From sequence record ON286975: a stretch of DNA of 64,000 nucleotides; one strand, 5' to 3'. The notes beneath the pieces were generated by a model. The model was not told where the DNA came from and ran no database searches. It saw nothing but the letters and a program-made list of their open reading frames with translations. A program made the position numbers and the translations under genes. The stretch comes from Escherichia phage I29. This document shows positions 33,281 to 61,418 of the stretch, in pieces. The number at the start of each line of letters is the position of its first letter. Within the stretch, counting starts at the first letter, position 1.

Positions 33281-33308
33281 CAAAAAGAAAGGGGCCTTTA
33301 AGCCCCTT
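33281..33308. terminator. bidirectional terminator-like hairpin
   Basis: ggggc-ctttaa-gcccc flanked by an A-run upstream and T-rich downstream; just 3' of minus gene 33327-33746. Confidence 0.5.
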
Positions 33309-33326
33309 GATAATTCAGTTAAGAAA

Positions 33327-33746
33327 TTATAATGATTCGTATATTTCAAAAATCCGATTTGCCAGGTCGTTACGGTAGCGGAATTTTTCCTCACGTTTGA
33401 TCATCAGATCTTTAAAGCCATATTCTTTAAGCACTTCATTAACTTTATGGCGGCACACCTTCATATTATCTTGAGCGTCACCAATAAACTTGTTGCTGTG
33501 GTGCATTGCTTTAATTTCTTCTTCCAGGACCAGGGCAACTACCCGGACCGGATCAAGCTGGTAGGCGGTAACATCGATGCGGCATTGTAGACGGCTTTTA
33601 ACGTCTGCCACCGGATATACTGCAACCTCTTCCCCGTCAACATTGACAATAACTAGTTTACCATCGATTTCGAATCCTTTCGCCGCCGGACCGTGACAAA
33701 AAGCGTTATCAAAGCTATATGCCGGATTATTAGATTTAATGTTCAT
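33327..33746 (-). CDS. hypothetical protein
   Basis: 139 aa; first gene of - strand cluster. Confidence 0.5.
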   Translation of the reverse strand: MNIKSNNPAYSFDNAFCHGPAAKGFEIDGKLVIVNVDGEEVAVYPVADVKSRLQCRIDVTAYQLDPVRVVALVLEEEIKAMHHSNKFIGDAQDNMKVCRHKVNEVLKEYGFKDLMIKREEKFRYRNDLANRIFEIYESL

Positions 33747-33890
33747 GGTGTTTTTACCTCTTAGTTAATTTTCTTACAACTTCCCTTCAAAAAAGAATAT
33801 AGCAAAACTGCCGATCCCTGTCAACCAAGGATGGCATAATTTTTATGTGATCAAGGGGCTTTATTGCCCCTGACCATGTAACTTGTTGTA

Positions 33891-34154: not shown

Positions 34155-34216
34155 GATGTTTTTCCTCTTTATGTGGTTTTTGTTTAGTGGGCCTTTTGGC
34201 CCGTGTCATTATCTTA

Positions 34217-34489
34217 TTACTTACGGCGGCAGAATTCAAGCGTTTTTAATTGATAATCTTCCTCAGCCTGGAGTACAACCGCCTCGATCATTTCGTTGGC
34301 ATTGTTGAAGCCATATCCTTTAGCGAATTCATCCGCACCACCTTCGTGATCATGTTCTGCGTTCATCGCTTCCACAAAATGGAATTCAAGATTATTGAGG
34401 TAGGGGCTTGATGTTCCGTCCTCTTTTTCAATGAGATCCCAAATAGCATTAAAACGTGATTCGACTTCTTGGTTAATCCAACTTGACAC
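34217..34489 (-). CDS. acidic hypothetical protein
   Basis: GTG start after AGAGGAAAAC; 90 aa. Confidence 0.5.
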   Translation of the reverse strand: MSSWINQEVESRFNAIWDLIEKEDGTSSPYLNNLEFHFVEAMNAEHDHEGGADEFAKGYGFNNANEMIEAVVLQAEEDYQLKTLEFCRRK

Positions 34490-34703
34490 GGCGTTTTCCT
34501 CTCTTCTGGTTGTGTGGGCACTTTTGCCCTTTCAAGATAAATGTTACCTCACCCCATGGCAGATGTCAACGGTTTTTATAGTTCTTATATGACAGGCAGG
34601 CCCGGTGATTGTCTCCCCCTGTTCCCAAGTGCCGCCCGTTTAATAAGAATAGCAAAAGGGGCCGAACAAGTCAACCCCAAAATCAGTACCAAAACACTTT
34701 TAT

Positions 34704-35949: not shown

Positions 35950-36054
35950 TCACCCGATACCGTTGGAAGATAAGATCACATTAGCCATGGTTGCAATCAG
36001 GCCAATACCCAGGGCAATAACCAGGATCACCGCATCAATTAATTTCTGTTTCAT
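35950..36054 (-). CDS. small hydrophobic peptide, 34 aa
   Basis: MKQKLIDAVILVIALGIGLIATMANVILSSNGIG; AGAGGAAAAC RBS. Confidence 0.35.
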   Translation of the reverse strand: MKQKLIDAVILVIALGIGLIATMANVILSSNGIG

Positions 36055-36144
36055 TTTGTTTTCCTCTTCTTGTTCCAGGTGGCGGACCATTCCACCGCCT
36101 TATGTATTATGCTTTGTAAGATGGTTGTTTGTTTTCAAACTATT

Positions 36145-36324: not shown

Positions 36325-36395
36325 GATTTTTATCCTCTTTGTGGTTGGTGGGGCTTGCCCCTTTGATTTATATACTACAGTCTTATATGGTCATG

Positions 36396-36629
36396 TCAAC
36401 TATTTTCAAAAAATTTTTCTGCTGTGATATTTTTCCCGGTAGGATTGGCTACTTTTAAAATTCTATCATGCACCGGACGCCCGAAAGAATAAGATCCGTA
36501 TACAGTAAACCAATAATCGCCGTCAGGTTGTACTATTACCGCCGCATATGGTACGCCTTTTTCGTTTTTGCTGACAAAATAGATCACATTGCCATTAATA
36601 GCCTCAGCGCGTTTAATTTGTTCCATCAT
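36396..36629 (-). CDS. hypothetical protein
   Basis: 77 aa; AGAGAGG RBS. Confidence 0.5.
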   Translation of the reverse strand: MMEQIKRAEAINGNVIYFVSKNEKGVPYAAVIVQPDGDYWFTVYGSYSFGRPVHDRILKVANPTGKNITAEKFFENS

Positions 36630-38133: not shown

Positions 38134-38221
38134 TTTGTTTCTCCTTTTGGAACTTTGTCTATGCGGTGGGGAGTGTCTCCCCGTTGATTGATATTATCCA
38201 TATTCTGGATCGGATTGCAAC

Positions 38222-39047: not shown

Positions 39048-39428
39048 TTAAAAATTATCGCCGTAAATCTTTCCGCTTTCTGCCCACACCACCACGCGGG
39101 GCATGTTATCCCATACGTCTTGTTTTAGATTTAACGCGTGCAATTCTTCTGTGGTGCTCATACCAGGCACGGGCTGATTGTATACTGCAAAACGACCACC
39201 TGCATAATCATAAGCTAAAGTCAAATCGCACTGAATCATTTTCTTGATCATGGCGTTAAGCATAGCGTTAGCCGCGTACTGGTCACGTTTTAAAGGCAAC
39301 TCTTTGATTAGTTTGCGATAGTTTTCGATATGGTCGCACACTGTTTCACGTGGAAGATCTTTCATATCTTCACGGAATGTAACCAGGTTAAACATAACGG
39401 TGTCAATAGCTTTAGTAGTGTTTTTCAT
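39048..39428 (-). CDS. hypothetical protein
   Basis: 126 aa; AGAGGAAAAC RBS. Confidence 0.5.
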   Translation of the reverse strand: MKNTTKAIDTVMFNLVTFREDMKDLPRETVCDHIENYRKLIKELPLKRDQYAANAMLNAMIKKMIQCDLTLAYDYAGGRFAVYNQPVPGMSTTEELHALNLKQDVWDNMPRVVVWAESGKIYGDNF

Positions 39429-39519
39429 GATGTTTTCCTCTTTGTTTTGTGTGGGGGCAAGTCATCTCGCCCCCTTAAGTTTTAATATAGCAGGTTTTTA
39501 GATTATTGCAACACTTTAT

Positions 39520-40143
39520 TTATGAAAAACTCATCTCTCCATATTCATCCACATCAAACCGCCAATCATTGGCTTCAATAAGGCCGATCAAGTTTTCGGT
39601 AGTAAACTGTTCAAGATAGGCCTCCTCCAGGTCTACATAAACCTTGCGGGATAGCTCCCGTACCGTCTCGGTGATCAGCTCTTCCAGATCTTCCACTTTA
39701 TTTTCTTGTTTTGCGGTCAGATCTAGCCAGGTAGTATCAATATATCCGCTTACAGTGTTTTCATGGCTGTAATGGCTGTACTTGTCGCGTTCAACACTGG
39801 CTGATAGTTCGCCATCGTGCATTGTGCCGAACAAGTGACGAATTGATCGGAACTTGGTCAGGGCCTTGACTTTACGCAAGAATTTCTCTAAGTCTACATT
39901 TTCAGCACTAATTGACGCGCCATCGCCTTGACACCAAAAGCCGGACCAATGTACATCGGTATCTTCAAGGCCGTACTCTGGAAAAACTTGTTCTTTATAA
40001 TATTCAATTACACTTTCTGCGAAAAAATCCTCTCCGCTGTGTTCTTCTCTTTCGCGGACCATTTCAATAGCTTTTTCTTTTTGTTCGTCGGTCAGCACGT
40101 CGAAAGATAAATTGCAACCTGTGGTAATGTTAACGGTAGTCAT
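39520..40143 (-). CDS. acidic hypothetical protein
   Basis: 207 aa; contains HWSGFWCQGDGASI; no confident family assignment. Confidence 0.5.
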   Translation of the reverse strand: MTTVNITTGCNLSFDVLTDEQKEKAIEMVREREEHSGEDFFAESVIEYYKEQVFPEYGLEDTDVHWSGFWCQGDGASISAENVDLEKFLRKVKALTKFRSIRHLFGTMHDGELSASVERDKYSHYSHENTVSGYIDTTWLDLTAKQENKVEDLEELITETVRELSRKVYVDLEEAYLEQFTTENLIGLIEANDWRFDVDEYGEMSFS

Positions 40144-40199
40144 GATATTTTCTCCTATTTTCTTTGTTAGTGGCGGGAAGTTTTCTCGCCTGTGTGTTT

Positions 40200-40228
40200 A
40201 AGTATACTTATTGAGGCTTACTTGTCAA
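40200..40228 (-). promoter_or_regulatory. sigma70-type promoter (minus strand)
   Basis: Minus strand TTGACA-17-ATACTT, followed by 5'-UTR hairpin ggcgagaaaacttcccgcc. Confidence 0.5.
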
Positions 40229-40478
40229 CACTATTTTTTAAATTATTGTGGCGTAAAATGTTTAGAATCTCTTCAACGTCATCAACACGGCGGCAATTTT
40301 TAAACGCTACCAATTGCCCCATGATTTTAATCACTGGGCGGCCTTGCCAGTGCCCCTGGAGAAAGCGCGCCTTGACTTTATCGGTGGAACTATCACGCCA
40401 CCAAATGGCCTTGTTGTTGCAGTAGTAAAAATTATTCAGGACAACATCAACTTTATCAAAATTTTTTAATTTACGCAT
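40218..40478 (-). CDS. hypothetical protein
   Basis: 86 aa; AAAGGAGTAAAC RBS. Confidence 0.45.
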   Translation of the reverse strand: MRKLKNFDKVDVVLNNFYYCNNKAIWWRDSSTDKVKARFLQGHWQGRPVIKIMGQLVAFKNCRRVDDVEEILNILRHNNLKNSVDK

Positions 40479-40510
40479 GGCGTTTACTCCTTTCTCTCTT
40501 TGATGTGGTT

Positions 40511-40538
40511 AGTATAGCTAACCTGTTTAAGATGTCAA
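40511..40538 (-). promoter_or_regulatory. sigma70-type promoter (minus strand)
   Basis: Minus strand TTGACA-16-TATACT upstream of gene 40218-40478. Confidence 0.55.
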
Positions 40539-40685
40539 GCTTTAAATAAAATCACTGTCAATGATATTTTTAACGCCATAAAACGGCCCTAAGCGATGTT
40601 TTCAGGTTAAAGGGGGGCGATTGCATAGGTGGGGCCTTTTTGGCGCTTACAGGGCCAACCAGGGGCGCTATTCGTAGGATAGAAA

Positions 40686-40711
40686 TAAAAAGCCCCGCAC
40701 AATGGCGGGGC
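40686..40711 (-). terminator. intrinsic terminator (minus strand)
   Basis: gccccgc-acaatg-gcggggc followed on the minus strand by TTTTTA. Confidence 0.6.
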
Positions 40712-40719
40712 GTTGGTTG

Positions 40720-40917
40720 TTATTTGTCTTTATGGCGGTATCGTTCTGCCTGTCGTTCACGTTCCAAAAGTAGGCCAGGCAATTTACGATCATAATGATT
40801 CCGCCAGATCTTCCCAAATCTTTTTGGCTTATTCAGTTTATTGTTGCGCTGGCGACGTTCCGGCAACTCTTCGGAATCATGAGGGCGCTTTACAATTTTT
40901 TCGAAATTAATTTTCAT
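40720..40917 (-). CDS. small basic protein
   Basis: Start MKINFEKIV after AAGGGGGG; Arg/Lys-rich. Confidence 0.45.
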   Translation of the reverse strand: MKINFEKIVKRPHDSEELPERRQRNNKLNKPKRFGKIWRNHYDRKLPGLLLERERQAERYRHKDK

Positions 40918-41278
40918 AACTTCCCCCCTTACTGATCTCAATATTTGCCTGAATCGCCCGGATACGCCGTTTTATAACCTCCTGATCCTTGCAATCATAT
41001 CCCCAAAAGTCTACGATTTTTGCGCCTCCAGCCTTTAGGCGGTATAGTGTTTCTTGCATCTTGTAGGCCGGGATCGGTCGCGGTGTTACCTGGTCGCCCT
41101 TCTCATTCTTGTACTTGATAATGTAGTCTTCATTGTCGTTGAATACCCAAAATGGGTATTCTGTGAGCGCGTTGCTCTCTTTTTCGTTTTTAGATTGGAT
41201 CTTGTTTACAATTAAAGCCGTAGCAATAGCGCCAATAATAAAACTTGCCCCACTGATCATGTTACTTTCTCCTTTCAT
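40907..41278 (-). CDS. membrane-anchored hypothetical protein
   Basis: N-terminal hydrophobic helix ISGASFIIGAIATALIV; 123 aa. Confidence 0.45.
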   Translation of the reverse strand: MKGESNMISGASFIIGAIATALIVNKIQSKNEKESNALTEYPFWVFNDNEDYIIKYKNEKGDQVTPRPIPAYKMQETLYRLKAGGAKIVDFWGYDCKDQEVIKRRIRAIQANIEISKGGSYEN

Positions 41279-41336
41279 TGTATTGATAAACTATCTTTAT
41301 AGATGGCCCTGCTACCAGGACCACCGAAAAAACAGT

Positions 41337-41582
41337 TTATTTGACGATACCGACAAAACAGATCCCGCCTTCCCCTATATAGGCAATATCGGTAATTTTA
41401 TAATTTGTCAAGATCCGCGTGTTCAGCTCATTAATAAAATCTGTCATCGCGTTGGTGTAGTTGTCTTCCGTGTCTAAGGCATAATCCCAGGTGTAAACCT
41501 TTTTACGTCCGAAGCCTTTTACCATGATACGGGCGCTTTTGGTGTTGGTAGGGGCATAATATTTGGTGATTAGTGCTGCCAT
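41337..41582 (-). CDS. hypothetical protein
   Basis: 81 aa; AGGAG RBS; downstream of 45-bp element copy 2. Confidence 0.45.
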   Translation of the reverse strand: MAALITKYYAPTNTKSARIMVKGFGRKKVYTWDYALDTEDNYTNAMTDFINELNTRILTNYKITDIAYIGEGGICFVGIVK

Positions 41583-41625
41583 GGTTTTAACTCCTATGCA
41601 TTAGTTCAGTGTTAACAGTATAAAG

Positions 41626-41669
41626 TTTACTTTATTGATGGCCCTGGAGTCAAGGCCATCTAAAAATAA
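41626..41669 (-). repeat. 45-bp promoter/stem-loop repeat element, copy 2
   Basis: Near-identical to 37886-37929; -10 TAAACT. Confidence 0.6.
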
Positions 41670-41671
41670 TC

Positions 41672-42022
41672 TTACTCGTTTTCTTCCAGCTCCGCAAGCT
41701 CTTCTTTTGCTTCTTCCAACTCTGTCTGTAATTCCTGGTATTCTTCATCGTCCTCAATATCCAGGCTGTCGATGTAGTCGCTAAATCCGCAGCGGTAAGC
41801 GATAGGATCTAGCTCTTTGAGGATACGCGACGGAAGAAAAGAAATGTTTCCGATCATAATTTCGCCGTAGATCTCGTCTAACCATTCATCATAGTTTTCG
41901 TCGTACTTGTCCTCGTCGATTTCAAAGTTATCGATCTTGTCTTCAAGTTCTGCAATCTGTTTTTTCAGGGCGGCGATCTGCAGGGCTTTTTCTTCGGCGG
42001 TCATAGTGATGGAAGTATTCAT
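41672..42022 (-). CDS. highly acidic coiled-coil protein
   Basis: 116 aa, about one-third Asp/Glu (EDKIDNFEIDEDKYDENYDEWLDEIY...EDDEEYQELQTELEEAKEE). Confidence 0.5.
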   Translation of the reverse strand: MNTSITMTAEEKALQIAALKKQIAELEDKIDNFEIDEDKYDENYDEWLDEIYGEIMIGNISFLPSRILKELDPIAYRCGFSDYIDSLDIEDDEEYQELQTELEEAKEELAELEENE

Positions 42023-42074
42023 AATGTTTTCTCCTTTTGGTGTTCTGGGAAGTTTTCCCGTTTATGTGCTTAGT

Positions 42075-42102
42075 ATTATACTGATTTAAGTTAGCTTGTC
42101 AA
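42075..42102 (-). promoter_or_regulatory. sigma70-type promoter (minus strand)
   Basis: Minus strand TTGACA-16-TATAAT, then 5'-UTR hairpin gggaaaacttccc. Confidence 0.55.
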
Positions 42103-42222
42103 TTAAAAGTTTAAGAAAAATTTTGCGAAATCATTGGCGCTACTCATCAACATTTGCGCCAGGATGTAACCAATGATGCAAACGATAATAGTTACCTTTG
42201 TGTGCTGGCGTGTAGTGCTCAT
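42103..42222 (-). CDS. small hydrophobic peptide, 39 aa
   Basis: MSTTRQHTKVTIIVCIIGYILAQMLMSSANDFAKFFLNF; GGAGG RBS; downstream of 45-bp element copy 3. Confidence 0.4.
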   Translation of the reverse strand: MSTTRQHTKVTIIVCIIGYILAQMLMSSANDFAKFFLNF

Positions 42223-42251
42223 CTTCAAGCCTCCTTTTTAACTGGGATTAG

Positions 42252-42295
42252 TTTACTTTACTGATGGCCCTGGAGTCAAGGCCATCTAAAAATAA
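42252..42295 (-). repeat. 45-bp promoter/stem-loop repeat element, copy 3
   Basis: GATGGCC-TTGACTCCAG-GGCCATC with -10 TAAACT; one substitution vs other copies. Confidence 0.6.
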
Positions 42296-42297
42296 AC

Positions 42298-42693
42298 TCA
42301 ATAAGTTTTTAGTACTTTCCCGTCCAATCTGTCAAGCTGGATCTCGATAGCTGCAGAAAACCTATTGTAAACCACATCGCCCAAGGAGTCCAGCCAATCT
42401 ATGACGTTATACACCTGCTCTTTATTCTTGCAAGTCCGGATCCGTTTCATTACGTAAGACGGATCAATATTAGCGCTCTCGTTGTTGTGGTCATGCTCCT
42501 GGCCTGCTGCATTAGTTATAGATTTTACAACCACCTGAAAAGGCTTTAAGGTGCCTTTTGCGTTCATCTCACGCGCTTTTGCGGCGCGGTTGTTATATGT
42601 TACACAACGGCGGCAAATGTTGACCAAATGCATGTCAATAATTTTTTCATCGTTTGCCAGTTCGTTCATGATGCGGCGTACGTTCTTATTCAT
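42298..42693 (-). CDS. hypothetical protein
   Basis: 131 aa; AAGGAAAAAGATC RBS. Confidence 0.5.
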   Translation of the reverse strand: MNKNVRRIMNELANDEKIIDMHLVNICRRCVTYNNRAAKAREMNAKGTLKPFQVVVKSITNAAGQEHDHNNESANIDPSYVMKRIRTCKNKEQVYNVIDWLDSLGDVVYNRFSAAIEIQLDRLDGKVLKTY

Positions 42694-42712
42694 GATCTTT
42701 TTCCTTTGTGTT

Positions 42713-42731
42713 GGCGGGAAACATTCCCGCC
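42713..42731 (-). promoter_or_regulatory. conserved 5'-UTR stem-loop
   Basis: ggcgggaa-acat-tcccgcc directly after predicted TSS; similar hairpins at about 40170, 42040 and 39450. Confidence 0.4.
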
Positions 42732-42741
42732 TTTTGTGATT

Positions 42742-42769
42742 AGTTTACTTGAATTTTGCAGCGTGTCAA
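42742..42769 (-). promoter_or_regulatory. sigma70-type promoter (minus strand)
   Basis: Minus strand TTGACA-16-TAAACT. Confidence 0.5.
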
Positions 42770-43436: not shown

Positions 43437-43805
43437 GATTTTTTATCCTCTCTGTTAATTAGTGTGGTGTTGTTCACCTTGCGAGGATAAGAATAACAGA
43501 ACTCTCCGAGCTGTCAACCATTAGTTAGAATTATTTTTTGGGAAGAATTCTCCAGCCGCCGCCCCTGCCAGGTTAACCATCATTTTTCGTACTCTTCTTT
43601 ATGTTCCAACGCTCCCGCCATAGCCTTTTCAACCAGGGTGATAACTTCAGCGGCGTTGATCGCTACATTTTCCAGGGGATTATATTACTTTTCATTTTTG
43701 TACCTCCTCTTCAATTGTTACCTGCCCTGTAGCATAGGCCTGCCAGGCTGGCCCCGCCAGGTTGCAACGGTTAGCGCATCAGGTTAGAAAAATTTTTTGA
43801 AAAGT

Positions 43806-43834
43806 GTTGACAGCGGCCCCGCCAGGTGGCACAA
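43806..43834 (+). promoter_or_regulatory. sigma70-type promoter (plus strand, inside minus-strand region)
   Basis: TTGACA-17-CACAAT; overlaps GCCCCGCCAGGT motif. Confidence 0.4.
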
Positions 43835-43841
43835 TATACCT

Positions 43842-43935
43842 ATCGAAAGGACGGCAGGCACCGGTGACGGGGGAGACAACCACCGGGGATGGGCGCTGCA
43901 TAAAATGAGAACGGTTATCATTATCATTTAAAAAT
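43842..43935 (+). ncRNA. candidate small RNA unit 1
   Basis: Hairpin ccggtg-(acgggggagacaac)-caccgg; about 75% nucleotide identity to unit 2; contains an 8-codon Ile-rich mini-ORF (MRTVIIII, 43904-43930). Confidence 0.3.
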
Positions 43936-43949
43936 TTATGCAAAAAATC

Positions 43950-43980
43950 CTTGCTTTCTTTGTCCTGTGTGATACTATAA
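43950..43980 (+). promoter_or_regulatory. sigma70-type promoter (plus strand)
   Basis: TATAAT -10 at 43975-43980; weak -35 TTGCTT. Confidence 0.4.
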
Positions 43981-43986
43981 TAACAA

Positions 43987-44072
43987 GCCGGGGCAACAGG
44001 GGCCGGGAGACAATCACCGGGGGTGCCCGTTATTCTGCAAACGAGAATGATTATCATTCAAAATTCTAAATG
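43987..44072 (+). ncRNA. candidate small RNA unit 2
   Basis: Paralogue of unit 1: shared GGGAGACAA(C/T)CACCGGGG and GAGAA(C/T)G(G/A)TTATCATT; mini-ORF MIIIQNSK at 44046-44072. Confidence 0.3.
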
Positions 44073-44169
44073 AGAACTCCTCGCATTTAATAAATTTAAT
44101 TAGCGTGCTAATTACCCTCCGTAACAATTTCCTATAAAACAGTATCCCATAAAATATTCCCATATAGAA

Positions 44170-44350
44170 ATTTTAAAAATCCATTTCTGAAAACGAAAAA
44201 TCGATTTCGTTCCCAAAAATTTCAGGTCGAGCTCCGGAACGATTTCCAGAAAATCCGATTCAGAAAACGAAAAACAGATCGAGTACTGAGAAATTTATCG
44301 AGAAAAATTTTCAGAAAATTCAATCTTTGAAACGAAAAACAGATCGAGTA
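44170..44350. repeat. degenerate tandem repeats (about 3 copies, 65-75 bp period)
   Basis: Cores GAAAACGAAAAA(T/C)(C/A)GAT... at 44188, 44262, 44328; copy 1 carries inverted repeat AACGAAA/TTTCGTT. Confidence 0.6.
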
Positions 44351-44596
44351 CCCGGAAAGCTGTACCGCAACCTCAAGATAGTGGTTAGACTATTACCATA
44401 AAAAGTCAAGGGTAAGTGGAGGAAGTTCTAGTAGAAGGATGTGAGCATGTGCGGGAAATCTGTAGTGGTGGTCTGGAATATGGTGCAAACGATAGGATGA
44501 GCGATTCAGCTTGTCGCGCCTACTCTGAAAAATCCATTTTAGTTTTCGATCCATTTTCTGATTTTCTAAGAATTTTAAAATATCTGGTCCGGTGAA

Positions 44597-61016: not shown

Positions 61017-61076
61017 CGTTTAGTGCTTCCTTAGTTTTTGTGGGGAGGAGTGCCTCCCCTTTATACTCACATCTTA

Positions 61077-61418
61077 CTACTCAAGGTCTTCAGAGTCAAG
61101 CTCAAAAAGAATCAAACTGTGCATGCCTGCAGAGAGATCAACACACCCTGCAACAATAAGGGTTTGATAGTAAGGTTCAGCACCCTCAATGTCTTCGTTA
61201 AAATCCACAACAAGGTAGTCACCTTTGTTAAAGGTGTATTTGTCCGATGTAAACGCAAAACCTGCCCAGTCCCCTACTGCAGGATCTTTATCAGTCACCT
61301 TTGTTAGCAGTAGATCTTTTTCACGAGATCTTTTAGTAAAATCGTGAATCACAACATCCTTCTCTTCAGGAGTTGGATTGCCGCACACGTAGTTAACGAT
61401 ATTTCTCCACAAACTCAT
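61077..61418 (-). CDS. hypothetical protein
   Basis: 113 aa; ATGA coupling to helicase gene. Confidence 0.5.
   Translation of the reverse strand: MSLWRNIVNYVCGNPTPEEKDVVIHDFTKRSREKDLLLTKVTDKDPAVGDWAGFAFTSDKYTFNKGDYLVVDFNEDIEGAEPYYQTLIVAGCVDLSAGMHSLILFELDSEDLE

Follow-up and report, generated by a model that had tools for sequence, protein, structure and literature searches.

In a 64,000-nucleotide stretch of Escherichia phage I29 (ON286975; hereafter, the window), ten promoter and hairpin units (A-J) were found, all of them on the minus strand. Judging from their sequence, these units are best read as putative 5'-terminal stabilising stem-loops carried inside a recombination-prone regulatory cassette; we give this reading a probability of about 0.5. 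The strong statistic for the units is the positional coupling of the hairpin to the -10 element. The window belongs to an rV5-like myophage (Vequintavirus) with 99.7% identity to Shigella phage CM1.

Layout and distribution of the cassettes

As seen directly in the sequence, the cassette reads, from 5' to 3', as an A/T-rich stretch, the -35 and -10 elements, C(-1)A(+1), unpaired bases, the hairpin, the leader and the start codon. The -35 and -10 are near-consensus sigma-70 (host-type) elements. The hairpin is G-rich/C-rich, with 5-9 bp and a loop of 3-5 nt that varies freely, and the leader (17-36 nt) is A/C-rich, U-poor and unstructured and harbours a Shine-Dalgarno sequence. The gene downstream of each cassette is a small orphan gene. 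The hairpin was present at only about ten of the roughly two dozen intergenic early promoters of the window, about half being without it. A second class of cassette, with the hairpin around the -35 (the -35 lies inside the hairpin), was also observed in the window.

The earlier note had reported four minus-strand hairpins (42713-42731 and near 42040, 40170 and 39450), each between a promoter and an A-rich tract with a ribosome-binding site. All four are present on that strand; a sigma-70-like promoter precedes every one, and an A/C-rich tract, a Shine-Dalgarno sequence and an ATG follow. Units E, F, I, G, J and H are six additions outside or beside these positions (Table 1). The recurrence and conservation proposed for the element were borne out beyond the window and reach other phage subfamilies: the cassette recurs in phi92, phAPEC8, Av-05 and the jumbo phage 121Q, often with the stem GCGGGAA-NNN-TTCCCGC. 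The unit A stem is unchanged in 13 relatives, and the unit C stem, with one A.C mismatch in the window, is perfect in CM1 and most relatives. Unit D precedes a membrane-protein gene common to phi92 and 121Q; in rV5-like phages, phi92, phAPEC8 and 121Q alike, this gene carries a promoter and a hairpin in the same location, with a stem sequence specific to each lineage.

Table 1. Promoter and hairpin units of the window, with example terminators. Folding z-scores compare predicted 5' UTRs with dinucleotide shuffles.
Feature	Position	Strand	Sequence and remarks	Hairpin start after -10 (nt)	Start codon	Folding z	Covariance model
Unit A promoter	42742..42769	-	TTGACA-16-TAAACT; A/T-rich stretch upstream
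Unit A hairpin	42713..42731	-	GGCGGGAAtgtTTCCCGCC = GGCGGGAA-tgt-TTCCCGCC; stem 8 bp, 3-nt loop; then AACACAAAGGAAAAAGATC	10	ATG 42693	-4.26	42.6 bits
Unit B promoter	42075..42102	-	TTGACA-16-TATAAT; 12/12 consensus match
Unit B hairpin	42045..42060	-	CGGGAAaacTTCCCaG = CGGGAA-aac-TTCCCaG; only 5 bp	15	ATG 42022	-1.69	E 0.13
Unit C promoter	40201..40228	-	TTGACA-16-TATACT
Unit C hairpin	40172..40190	-	GGCGaGAAaacTTCcCGCC = GGCGaGAA-aac-TTCcCGCC	10	ATG 40143	-2.19	38.1 bits
Unit D promoter	39484..39511	-	TTGCAA-16-TATATT; extended -10 TG (TGn)
Unit D hairpin	39453..39474	-	GGGGGCGAGatgaCTTGCCCCC = GGGGGCGAG-atga-CTTGCCCCC; 9 bp including one G.U	9	ATG 39428	-5.42
Unit E promoter	38193..38220	-	TTGCAA-16-GATAAT with TGn
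Unit E hairpin	38168..38182	-	GGGGAG-aca-CTCCCC	10	ATG 38133	-3.12	29 bits
Unit F, whole	36350..36399	-	promoter TTGACA-16-TAGTAT (36399-36372)
Unit F hairpin	36361-36350	-	short GGGG-caag-CCCC; 4-bp stem		ATG 36324	-0.75 (weak)	24.1 bits
Unit I hairpin	36078..36099	-	GGCGGTGGA-atgg-TCCGCCACC; one mismatch, one U.G; preceded by CATAAT without a good -35		ATG 36053 (true start)		21.6 bits
Unit G, whole	34516..34569	-	promoter TTGACA-17-TAACAT (34569-34541)
Unit G hairpin	34529-34516	-	GGGCA-aaag-TGCCC		GTG 34489	-1.84
Unit J, whole	34189..34239	-	weak promoter TTGAAT-17-TAAGAT (34239-34211)
Unit J hairpin	34202-34189	-	GGGCC-aaaa-GGCCC	8	ATG 34154
Unit H, whole	61042..61099	-	promoter TTGACT-17-TAAGAT (61099-61071)
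Unit H hairpin	61059-61042	-	GGGGAGG-cact-CCTCCCC		ATG 61016	-2.78
Real terminators of the phage (examples)	40711-40692, 48189-48168, 33308-33289		look unlike cassette hairpins

Position, structure and conservation of the hairpins

On the minus strand of the window, a hairpin begins 9-11 nt past a promoter-like -10 in seven cases, compared to 0.45 ± 0.66 expected by chance (5000 circular shifts, maximum 4); the same scan found zero such hairpins on the plus strand of the window. The -10-to-hairpin distance peaks at 9-11 nt only on the gene strand, both in the window and in four further phages; of 47 distinct units, 21 have a distance of 10 nt, another 11 have 11 nt and seven have 9 nt. This constant spacing may come partly from the common descent of copied cassettes. 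Unit B is an exception, its distance being 12-13 nt in several relatives and longer still here (Table 1).

A C followed by a purine at positions 7-8 after the -10 is the classical -1/+1 start context. Of the 47 distinct units, 32 have C at position 7 and 45 have a purine at position 8, which is A in 36 of them. Transcription is predicted to start at this conserved C-A, 7-8 nt past the -10, which would leave 2-4 unpaired bases at the 5' end of the RNA. As the context is conserved and the hairpin lies 2-4 nt later, a start downstream of the hairpin would need a non-canonical promoter. The earlier suggestion that the hairpins sit at the 5' ends of transcripts is thus backed by the -10-to-hairpin geometry and by the predicted start context.

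In the predicted 5' UTRs the hairpin is the only fold and the ribosome site stays open. Taken singly, the folding z-scores of units A and D reach significance and those of B and C are weak; B is the weakest of the four units first noted. Across 13 orthologous loci, the fraction of variable columns was 0.00 in the -35, 0.13 in the -10, 0.25 in the stems, 0.28 in the spacer, 0.34 in the leader, 0.50 in the discriminator and 0.75 in the loop. When 48 distinct units were aligned with the covariance model, 83.7% of cells paired vs. 77.6% in shuffled alignments (reached by 0/500), and the covariation score was 0.179 vs. 0.105 in shuffles (0/500), with all slid controls at or below 0.118. Covariation in homologues, a check named by the earlier note, gave a modest signal, but true double compensatory changes were few in orthologues. 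Stems also tolerate single substitutions that break a pair (unit C in the window, also L003 and L011). Significant covariance-model matches fell on the gene strand in every case. For 34 of 44 units the better-folding RNA is the sense one and not the antisense (Wilcoxon p 0.0008), and folding gaps of at least 2 kcal/mol favour sense in 10 units vs. 2, via G.U pairs. Loops flip orientation between orthologues (TGT/ACA in unit A, AAC/GTT in unit C).

Relation to PeSL cassettes and alternative readings

The units belong to a known kind of composite element, the promoter-early stem-loop (PeSL) cassettes, a point that the earlier note missed. PeSL cassettes were described in the T4-like phages RB49, phi1, PST/T4 and nt-1/KVP40 (Arbiol et al. 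2010, PMC2839356; Comeau et al. 2014, PMC4122927). The PeSL authors interpreted the stem-loop as a terminator or attenuator and as a site of recombination rather than as stabilising the 5' UTR. The two sets share a near-consensus sigma-70 early promoter with an A/T-rich region upstream, an adjacent stable stem-loop of G runs then C runs, a 3' end that carries the Shine-Dalgarno sequence and the start codon, a clustering of many copies between small orphan genes, and indel junctions of close relatives inside the elements; the window's class with the -35 inside the hairpin matches a described PeSL subclass. However, the carriers here come from other taxa (Vequintavirinae, Stephanstirmvirinae and Asteriusvirus), the sequence family differs, and a covariance-model search of the RB49 PeSL region gave no significant match (best E 0.047). 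In RB49, on which the PeSL type is based, the stem-loop is mostly found between the -35 and -10 or over the -10, where it could not form the 5' end of the RNA made from its promoter, whereas the window hairpin is at a fixed position of about +4, inside the predicted transcript, with an A/C-rich tail behind it. Given the RB49 geometry, one function common to all such cassettes would not be 5' protection.

It is unlikely that the hairpin is a terminator, attenuator or insulator that damps upstream transcription and leaves the small gene driven mainly by its own promoter. The stem-loops of RB49 and phi1 reportedly cut downstream lacZ expression as strongly as rrnB T1 (PMC2839356), but there a U/A-rich -10 hexamer follows the stem-loop, unlike here. 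Like intrinsic (Rho-independent) terminators, the cassette hairpins are short, GC-rich and intergenic, about 45 nt past the upstream stop codon; in the deposited annotation of phage Alma, the hairpins orthologous to A and C carry gene-strand terminator labels, and the second class, with its hairpin around the -35, can only act on upstream transcripts. However, a U-tract is lacking: among the 47 distinct units, the base composition over the 8 nt past the stem is 54% A, 26% C, 6% G and 14% U, with two U or fewer in 40 tails, and the intergenic hairpins of the early arm form two groups, these units with 0-1 U in the tail and the canonical terminators with 5-6. Moreover, the hairpin lies downstream of the next gene's promoter and predicted start, and a true terminator at this place would equally abort that promoter's own transcripts at about +25. 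Intrinsic termination on the plus strand, stopping antisense transcription into the early arm, is extremely improbable: A, B and C come out as terminator-like in a simple scan (e.g. GGCGGGAAACATTCCCGCC then TTTTGTGATT), but four U directly after the stem occur in unit A only, phi92 and phAPEC8 lack a U-rich complement to the upstream flank, the covariance model including the flanks matches the gene strand only, and the sites are faced by neither genes nor strong promoters on the plus strand.

A site for a trans-acting factor, either a DNA operator (+4 to +22, dimeric phage repressor) or an RNA hairpin bound by a protein of phage or host, is quite unlikely. The 17-bp palindrome GCGGGAA-NNN-TTCCCGC, its centre always 3 nt, occurs in many near-identical copies in rV5-like phages, phi92, phAPEC8 and the jumbo phage 121Q, and repressor operators typically have this size and this place, directly after the -10. 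Against this, the GCGGGAA half-site is found in only 3-4 of the ten window units, other stems (GGGGGCGAG, GGGGAG, GGGCA, GGGGAGG and GGGCC) all keep pairing and position, and G.U pairs favour the sense RNA. That loops vary freely in length and sequence, and even flip between orthologues, argues against loop-specific RNA recognition, and a domain scan of the ten adjacent proteins found no DNA- or RNA-binding domain. The lambda nut (boxA plus boxB) and HK022 put sites resemble the cassettes in placing an RNA hairpin immediately past early promoters, in phages that also have terminators inside the early arm. They differ from them in serving two promoters rather than ten; no boxA-like motif was found beside the hairpins, the loops are not conserved, and there is one short stem instead of the two-stem structure of about 65 nt of put. 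Finally, the hairpin might have no RNA function of its own and persist in a recombination-spread cassette as a palindromic recombination or template-switch hot spot, which we consider very unlikely. Consistent with such a history, the junction of a gene-sized indel between the window and JeffSchatz and Alma lies inside a chimeric GGGGC..GCCCC hairpin and that of a second indel in the shared leader aaccacataaagagg, the inverted loops separate orthologues of units A and C, cassettes look homogenised within each genome, and PeSL mini-circles are documented (PMC2839356). Yet stems are more conserved than the adjoining spacer, discriminator and leader, very different stems keep an equal -10 spacing and a U-poor tail, and the strand asymmetry of folding is unexpected for a purely DNA-level element.

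Proposed role of the stem-loop and cassette

In the preferred reading, a 5'-terminal stabilising stem-loop, host RNA polymerase would initiate just upstream of the hairpin, so every mRNA from these promoters would start with a 5'-terminal stem-loop. The stem-loop would hinder 5'-end-dependent decay (RppH pyrophosphate removal and RNase E 5'-end sensing), as do the leaders of ompA, papA and T7 gene 10, and the open A/C-rich leader would leave the ribosome site free. Read-through transcripts would acquire the same protected 5' end by cleavage within the A/U-rich promoter RNA. Three or four unpaired 5' nucleotides are reportedly near the upper limit for protection, which counts against this role. 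So do the long 5' tail of unit B (about 7 unpaired bases before its stem), the short stem of unit F, the tolerated stem-breaking substitutions, the scarcity of true double compensatory changes in orthologues and the many early promoters that lack a hairpin.

Stabilisation of E. coli mRNAs by 5'-terminal stem-loops is established (Emory 1992, Bouvet and Belasco 1992, Arnold 1998; all referenced in PMC3997798). Like the ompA and papA 5' UTRs and the T7 gene 10 leader, the cassettes combine a stable hairpin a few nt from the (here predicted) 5' end with an unstructured leader and an accessible ribosome site, and structure is kept rather than loop sequence; unlike them, the phage hairpin is multi-copy, tied to a promoter cassette and shares sequence across phage lineages. 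rV5 codes for a probable Srd homologue (PMC3606486), and T4 Srd stimulates RNase E, as Qi 2015 is cited in PMC7430671; this stimulation would give a motive to protect the 5' ends of phage mRNAs. The cassettes, being repeated and alike and having indel junctions inside them, would also act as homology patches for the gain, loss and swap of small genes, as reported for the PeSL cassettes of T4-like phages, a role that is partly shown.

Promoter-hairpin units of the minus-strand early arm

The four GC-rich hairpins of the earlier note (units A to D in the table) are present on the minus strand at the sites it named. Each follows a sigma-70-type promoter and precedes an A/C-rich tract with a Shine-Dalgarno sequence and then an ATG; the note's description was accurate and the finding is real. 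Six further minus-strand units, E to J, emerged from scans and a covariance model. The promoters of units A to H match TTGACA-N16-18-TATAAT at 9-12 of 12 positions. The hairpin core (mean -13.3 kcal/mol) is adjacent to the promoter and often consists of a G run and then a C run. Hairpin and promoter are coupled far more tightly than chance predicts: seven hairpins start 9-11 nt past the -10 (0.45 expected) and the plus strand has none. Folding predicted that the ribosome-binding site and the remaining leader are open in units A, B, C and D. The rV5 genome paper tabulates 33 promoters and 20 terminators, and these hairpins are absent from it; its promoter table stops 7 nt past the -10, and the hairpins fall outside it (PMC3606486).

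Hairpins of the promoter-hairpin units (A to J) and of the second cassette type
Feature	Position in window	Strand	Remarks
Unit A hairpin	42731-42713	minus	8 bp; folding z -4.26
Unit B hairpin	42060-42045	minus	5 bp; folding z -1.69
Unit C hairpin	40190-40172	minus	one A.C mismatch in window; folding z -2.19
Unit D hairpin	39474-39453	minus	9 bp including one G.U; folding z -5.42
Unit E hairpin	38182-38168	minus	
Unit F hairpin	36361-36350	minus	
Unit I hairpin	36099-36078	minus	
Unit G hairpin	34529-34516	minus	
Unit J hairpin	34202-34189	minus	
Unit H hairpin	61059-61042	minus	
Second-type hairpin, identical copy	42286-42263	minus	-35 TTGACT inside hairpin
Second-type hairpin, identical copy	41660-41637	minus	-35 TTGACT inside hairpin
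Second-type hairpin, identical copy	37920-37897	minus	-35 TTGACT inside hairpin
Second-type hairpin, variant	41325-41302	minus	-35 TTGACT inside hairpin

Anatomy was analysed in 47 distinct units pooled from the window and its relatives. The stem begins 10 nt past the -10 in 21 units, 11 nt past it in 11 and 9 nt past it in 7. The seventh base past the -10 is C in 32/47 and the eighth is a purine in 45/47; a C followed by a purine at this distance is typical of the -1/+1 positions at E. coli start sites. From this context and the distance between -10 and stem, transcripts are predicted to start with 2-4 unpaired bases followed by the stem, so that the sequence supports well the placement of the hairpin in the 5'-UTR that had been proposed. 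In unit B the predicted 5' end leaves approximately 7 unpaired nt ahead of the stem. The 8 nt 3' of the stem are rich in A and C (A 54%, C 26%, G 6%, U 14%), the start codon follows 17-36 nt further 3', and the 20 nt 5' of the -35 are 75% A+T.

Two units carry local peculiarities. Position 40186, in the 5' arm of unit C, is A in the window and G in Shigella phage CM1 (99.7% identical over the region) and most relatives; the A leaves an A.C mismatch, and the stem is less stable for it (about -7.7 instead of -14.6 kcal/mol). In the interval 35950-36090, an ATG at 36090 falls within the loop of hairpin I, and the small gene after this hairpin more plausibly starts at ATG 36053, which has a Shine-Dalgarno sequence.

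The second cassette type has a 24-nt hairpin, GATGGCC-TTGACTCCAG-GGCCATC, followed by the -10 TAAACT, and resembles the promoter-early stem-loop (PeSL) subclass of T4-like phages that overlaps the -35. This hairpin can be present only in transcripts arriving from upstream. In RNA, U-rich and A-rich flanking arms add to the helix, bringing it to about 21 bp, and a helix of this length could serve for RNase III-type processing. A separate minus-strand element at 34678-34658 consists of the hairpin GGGGTTGACTTGTTCGGCCCC followed by TTTTGC, with a -35 TTGACT within, and appears to be a terminator and a promoter overlapping each other.

Plus-strand genes occupy approximately 1-30 kb of the window and small hypothetical minus-strand genes 33-64 kb; all genes neighbouring the units are hypothetical. 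None of ten proteins adjoining units reached the Pfam gathering cut-off (three weak sub-cut-off matches, all in one protein) and no nucleic-acid-binding domain was seen among them. A tRNA scan of the whole window found no tRNA genes, and an Rfam scan of 33-48 kb found no family above its gathering score (two sub-threshold matches were at chance level). ORFs are few between 30300 and 33300, the zone in which the plus-strand arm meets the minus-strand arm, and this interval matches a 'non-coding' box on the rV5 map. Within the early arm, 43440-44520 (1.1 kb) is without a convincing ORF. A sequence of about 57 nt occurs there three times as a direct repeat (44163-44358; spacings of 65-74 nt), GGCCCCGCCAGGT is present in three copies (43561-43831), and GGGAGACAAnCACCGGGG motifs recur. 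The stretch might be origin-like or a small-RNA region.

Conservation of the hairpin and its spread among phages

Over 100 Vequintavirus (rV5-like) genomes besides CM1 are 91-97% identical to the window region. Orthologues were drawn from GenBank phage records because an IMG/VR query with the protein encoded after unit A returned two loci only. Regions of 13 orthologous Vequintavirus loci differed in their fraction of variable columns, which was lowest in the -35 (0.00) and -10 (0.13), followed by the stems (0.25), spacer (0.28), leader (0.34), discriminator (0.50) and loop (0.75). Some changes kept the pairing, e.g. A-U in place of G.U in unit D and U.G in place of C-G in unit C; in unit D the G-run and C-run lengths also change in step. 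Unit C tolerates three independent single mismatches, and the structural constraint is therefore not absolute. The loop of unit A (42721-42723) is TGT in the window and ACA in an IMG/VR contig, while that of unit C (40180-40182) is AAC in the window and GTT in JeffSchatz and APECc02. Both pairs are exact reverse complements, which suggests that the loop inverts within a perfect palindrome.

The earlier note had named covariation in homologues as a check. In an alignment of 48 distinct units based on the covariance model, 83.7% of cells paired (77.6% in shuffles, 0/500), and the covariation score was 0.179, compared to 0.105 in shuffles (0/500) and at most 0.118 in slid controls. These figures are conservative, as the inner stem is structurally inconsistent in the MAFFT alignment of the paralogous units. 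Many unlike stems occupy the same position, loops vary freely and covariation exceeds the controls, indicating that structure is kept over sequence.

The sense RNA folds better than the antisense in 34/44 units (p 0.0008), a difference in energy that comes partly from flanking-base effects. Large differences favour the sense strand (10 vs. 2, with several of these units sharing ancestry) because of G.U pairs. This folding comparison replaced a count of G.U against A.C in the covariance-model alignment, which was unreliable since stems of unequal length were misaligned; the direct count in stems (14 vs. 8) did not reach significance and was raised by extension artefacts. Conservation, covariation and folding are suggestive, not proof, of a function in the sense RNA.

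The same architecture precedes many small genes in phi92 (Justusliebigvirus), phAPEC8 (Phapecoctavirus), Av-05 (Avunavirus) and the 348-kb jumbo phage 121Q (Asteriusvirus), where stems are often almost alike (GGGCGGGAA-tag-TTCCCGCTC, GAGCGGGAA-tag-TTCCCGCCTC and GGGCGGCA-atag-TGCCGCTC). BLAST with a 45-nt unit matched 675 places in 178 phage records, almost all of them large enterobacterial phages. The covariance model, built on 44 units, matched nine units in the window, all on the minus strand, and in 50 kb of phi92 its matches were confined to the small-ORF cluster adjoining the right terminal repeat. The gene after unit D (39048-39428, minus strand) encodes a membrane protein with homologues in phi92, phAPEC8 and 121Q (64-72% protein identity); a promoter and a hairpin lie upstream of it in each lineage, with a lineage-specific stem. 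This gene and, in part, its 207-aa neighbour (39520-40143) are also common to 121Q, Sharanji and other Asteriusvirus jumbo phages. Their identity to the Asteriusvirus copies (about 67% in nucleotides, 62-68% in protein) indicates that unrelated coliphage lineages exchange early-gene modules.

Relation to PeSL cassettes

PeSL cassettes, which form clusters among orphan genes, combine a consensus early promoter, an A/T-rich upstream region and a G-run/C-run stem-loop. The authors who described them proposed that they stop transcription arriving from upstream, and showed recombination between cassettes (PMC2839356, PMC4122927). The units described here likewise have a sigma-70-consensus early promoter (with the -35 invariant in 13 relatives), A/T-rich upstream sequence and a stable adjacent G-run/C-run stem-loop, lie among the small orphan genes of variable regions, and contain the ends of indels between close relatives. 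In the commonest of the five PeSL subclasses the stem-loop overlaps the -10 or is placed between the two promoter hexamers (PMC2839356); the hairpin of the present units, at a fixed 9-11 nt past the -10, corresponds to the rare subclass 'downstream of the -10'. Read directly, the RB49 PeSL region has the stem-loop mostly between the -35 and -10 (TTGACA-GGGGATC..GATCCCC-TATAAT) or over the -10, and the covariance model of the rV5/phi92-type unit found nothing significant there. The units are thus of the same kind as PeSL cassettes but belong to another sequence family, and their hairpin has a constant location within the predicted transcript.

Two indels illustrate the exchange. The module with the gene at 33327-33746 and its promoter is absent from JeffSchatz and Alma (546-nt indel, window 33307-33853). 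At the junction in these phages (about 858-875 in L001, the JeffSchatz locus, and about 934-951 in L004) there is a single chimeric GGGGC-ttaaa-GCCCC hairpin, while the window has two similar hairpins (33871-33854 and 33308-33289), pointing to recombination inside hairpins. JeffSchatz in turn has an extra small gene, bas55_0129 (L001 1193-1459), in a 266-nt insertion at window 34161-34188, with the crossover in the shared A/C-rich leader aaccacataaagagg, just 5' of the start codons.

Candidate functions of the hairpin

Host RNA polymerase would start at the conserved A, making the hairpin the 5'-terminal stem-loop of each early mRNA. We consider it about an even bet (probability roughly 0.5) that this stem-loop stabilises the early mRNAs. 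5' stem-loops are described as protecting mRNAs of E. coli against decay that depends on the 5' end (Emory 1992, Bouvet and Belasco 1992, Arnold 1998; PMC3997798). As in stabilising stem-loops of the ompA type, structure matters more than sequence. The hairpin is also predicted to lie close to the 5' end, 2-4 nt past a C-A start context located 7-8 nt after the -10. rV5 encodes a probable Srd homologue (PMC3606486), and T4 Srd is described as stimulating RNase E against host mRNA (Qi 2015, cited in PMC7430671); speculatively, protecting phage 5' ends would then be useful.

The hairpins might instead be terminators, attenuators or insulators, the reading of the PeSL authors for their stem-loops and of the deposited annotation of phage Alma. 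We regard this as unlikely: the 28 intergenic hairpins of the early arm separate clearly into the promoter-hairpin units, with 0-1 U per 8 nt of tail (14% U in the pooled tails) and no U-tract, canonical terminators of the phage, with 5-6 U (e.g. 40711-40692, 48189-48168 and 33308-33289), and the second cassette type. Termination would also abort the transcripts of the unit's own promoter. The terminator labels, found in at least one deposited genome, are likely to be an annotation error. Termination of antisense transcripts is very improbable, as the plus strand has a U-rich tail in unit A only. A shared 17-bp palindrome suggests an operator or protein-binding site, an idea made doubtful by the different stems of most window units and their unconstrained loops. 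Slightly less credible than an operator is a recombination cassette without an RNA role, the main objection being that stems are better conserved than their neighbours.

Two known RNA elements were also considered. A lambda nut or HK022 put antitermination RNA was rejected, as no boxA-like minus-strand match lies beside any unit and the loops are the most variable part. A hairpin promoter of the N4 type for a phage RNA polymerase was set aside because canonical sigma-70 promoters lie directly upstream; we know of no phage RNA polymerase in the rV5-like group.

The stem GCGGGAA-NNN-TTCCCGC, shared at the predicted transcript 5' end by at least three unrelated coliphage lineages (rV5-like, phi92/phAPEC8-like and 121Q-like jumbo phages), might conceivably be more than a generic structure or a hitch-hiking cassette, namely a specific recognition mark for a trans-acting factor and so a cross-lineage 'self' tag on phage mRNAs, although we hold this to be a long shot. 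Such a mark could exempt early mRNAs from phage-stimulated (Srd-type) RNase E decay or, in another form, time early-gene shut-off.

Literature searches on rV5, PVP-SE1, phAPEC8 and Vequintavirus returned no report of transcription starts, transcriptomes or stem-loops, and as far as we found the units are undescribed in rV5-like, phi92-like and 121Q-like phages. The element belongs both to the promoter and stem-loop cassettes and to the 5'-terminal stem-loops. If the 5' stem-loop reading holds, the PeSL idea is no longer confined to T4-like phages but applies also to large virulent coliphages of at least three further groups, in which many orphan early genes would carry a portable unit of strong promoter, protective 5' hairpin, open leader and ribosome site. 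This would explain how phage mRNA could survive during the destruction of host mRNA, how new small genes can be plugged in ready for expression, and why it is at these very junctions that gene content varies. The units would also offer compact natural 5'-UTR parts for expression design.
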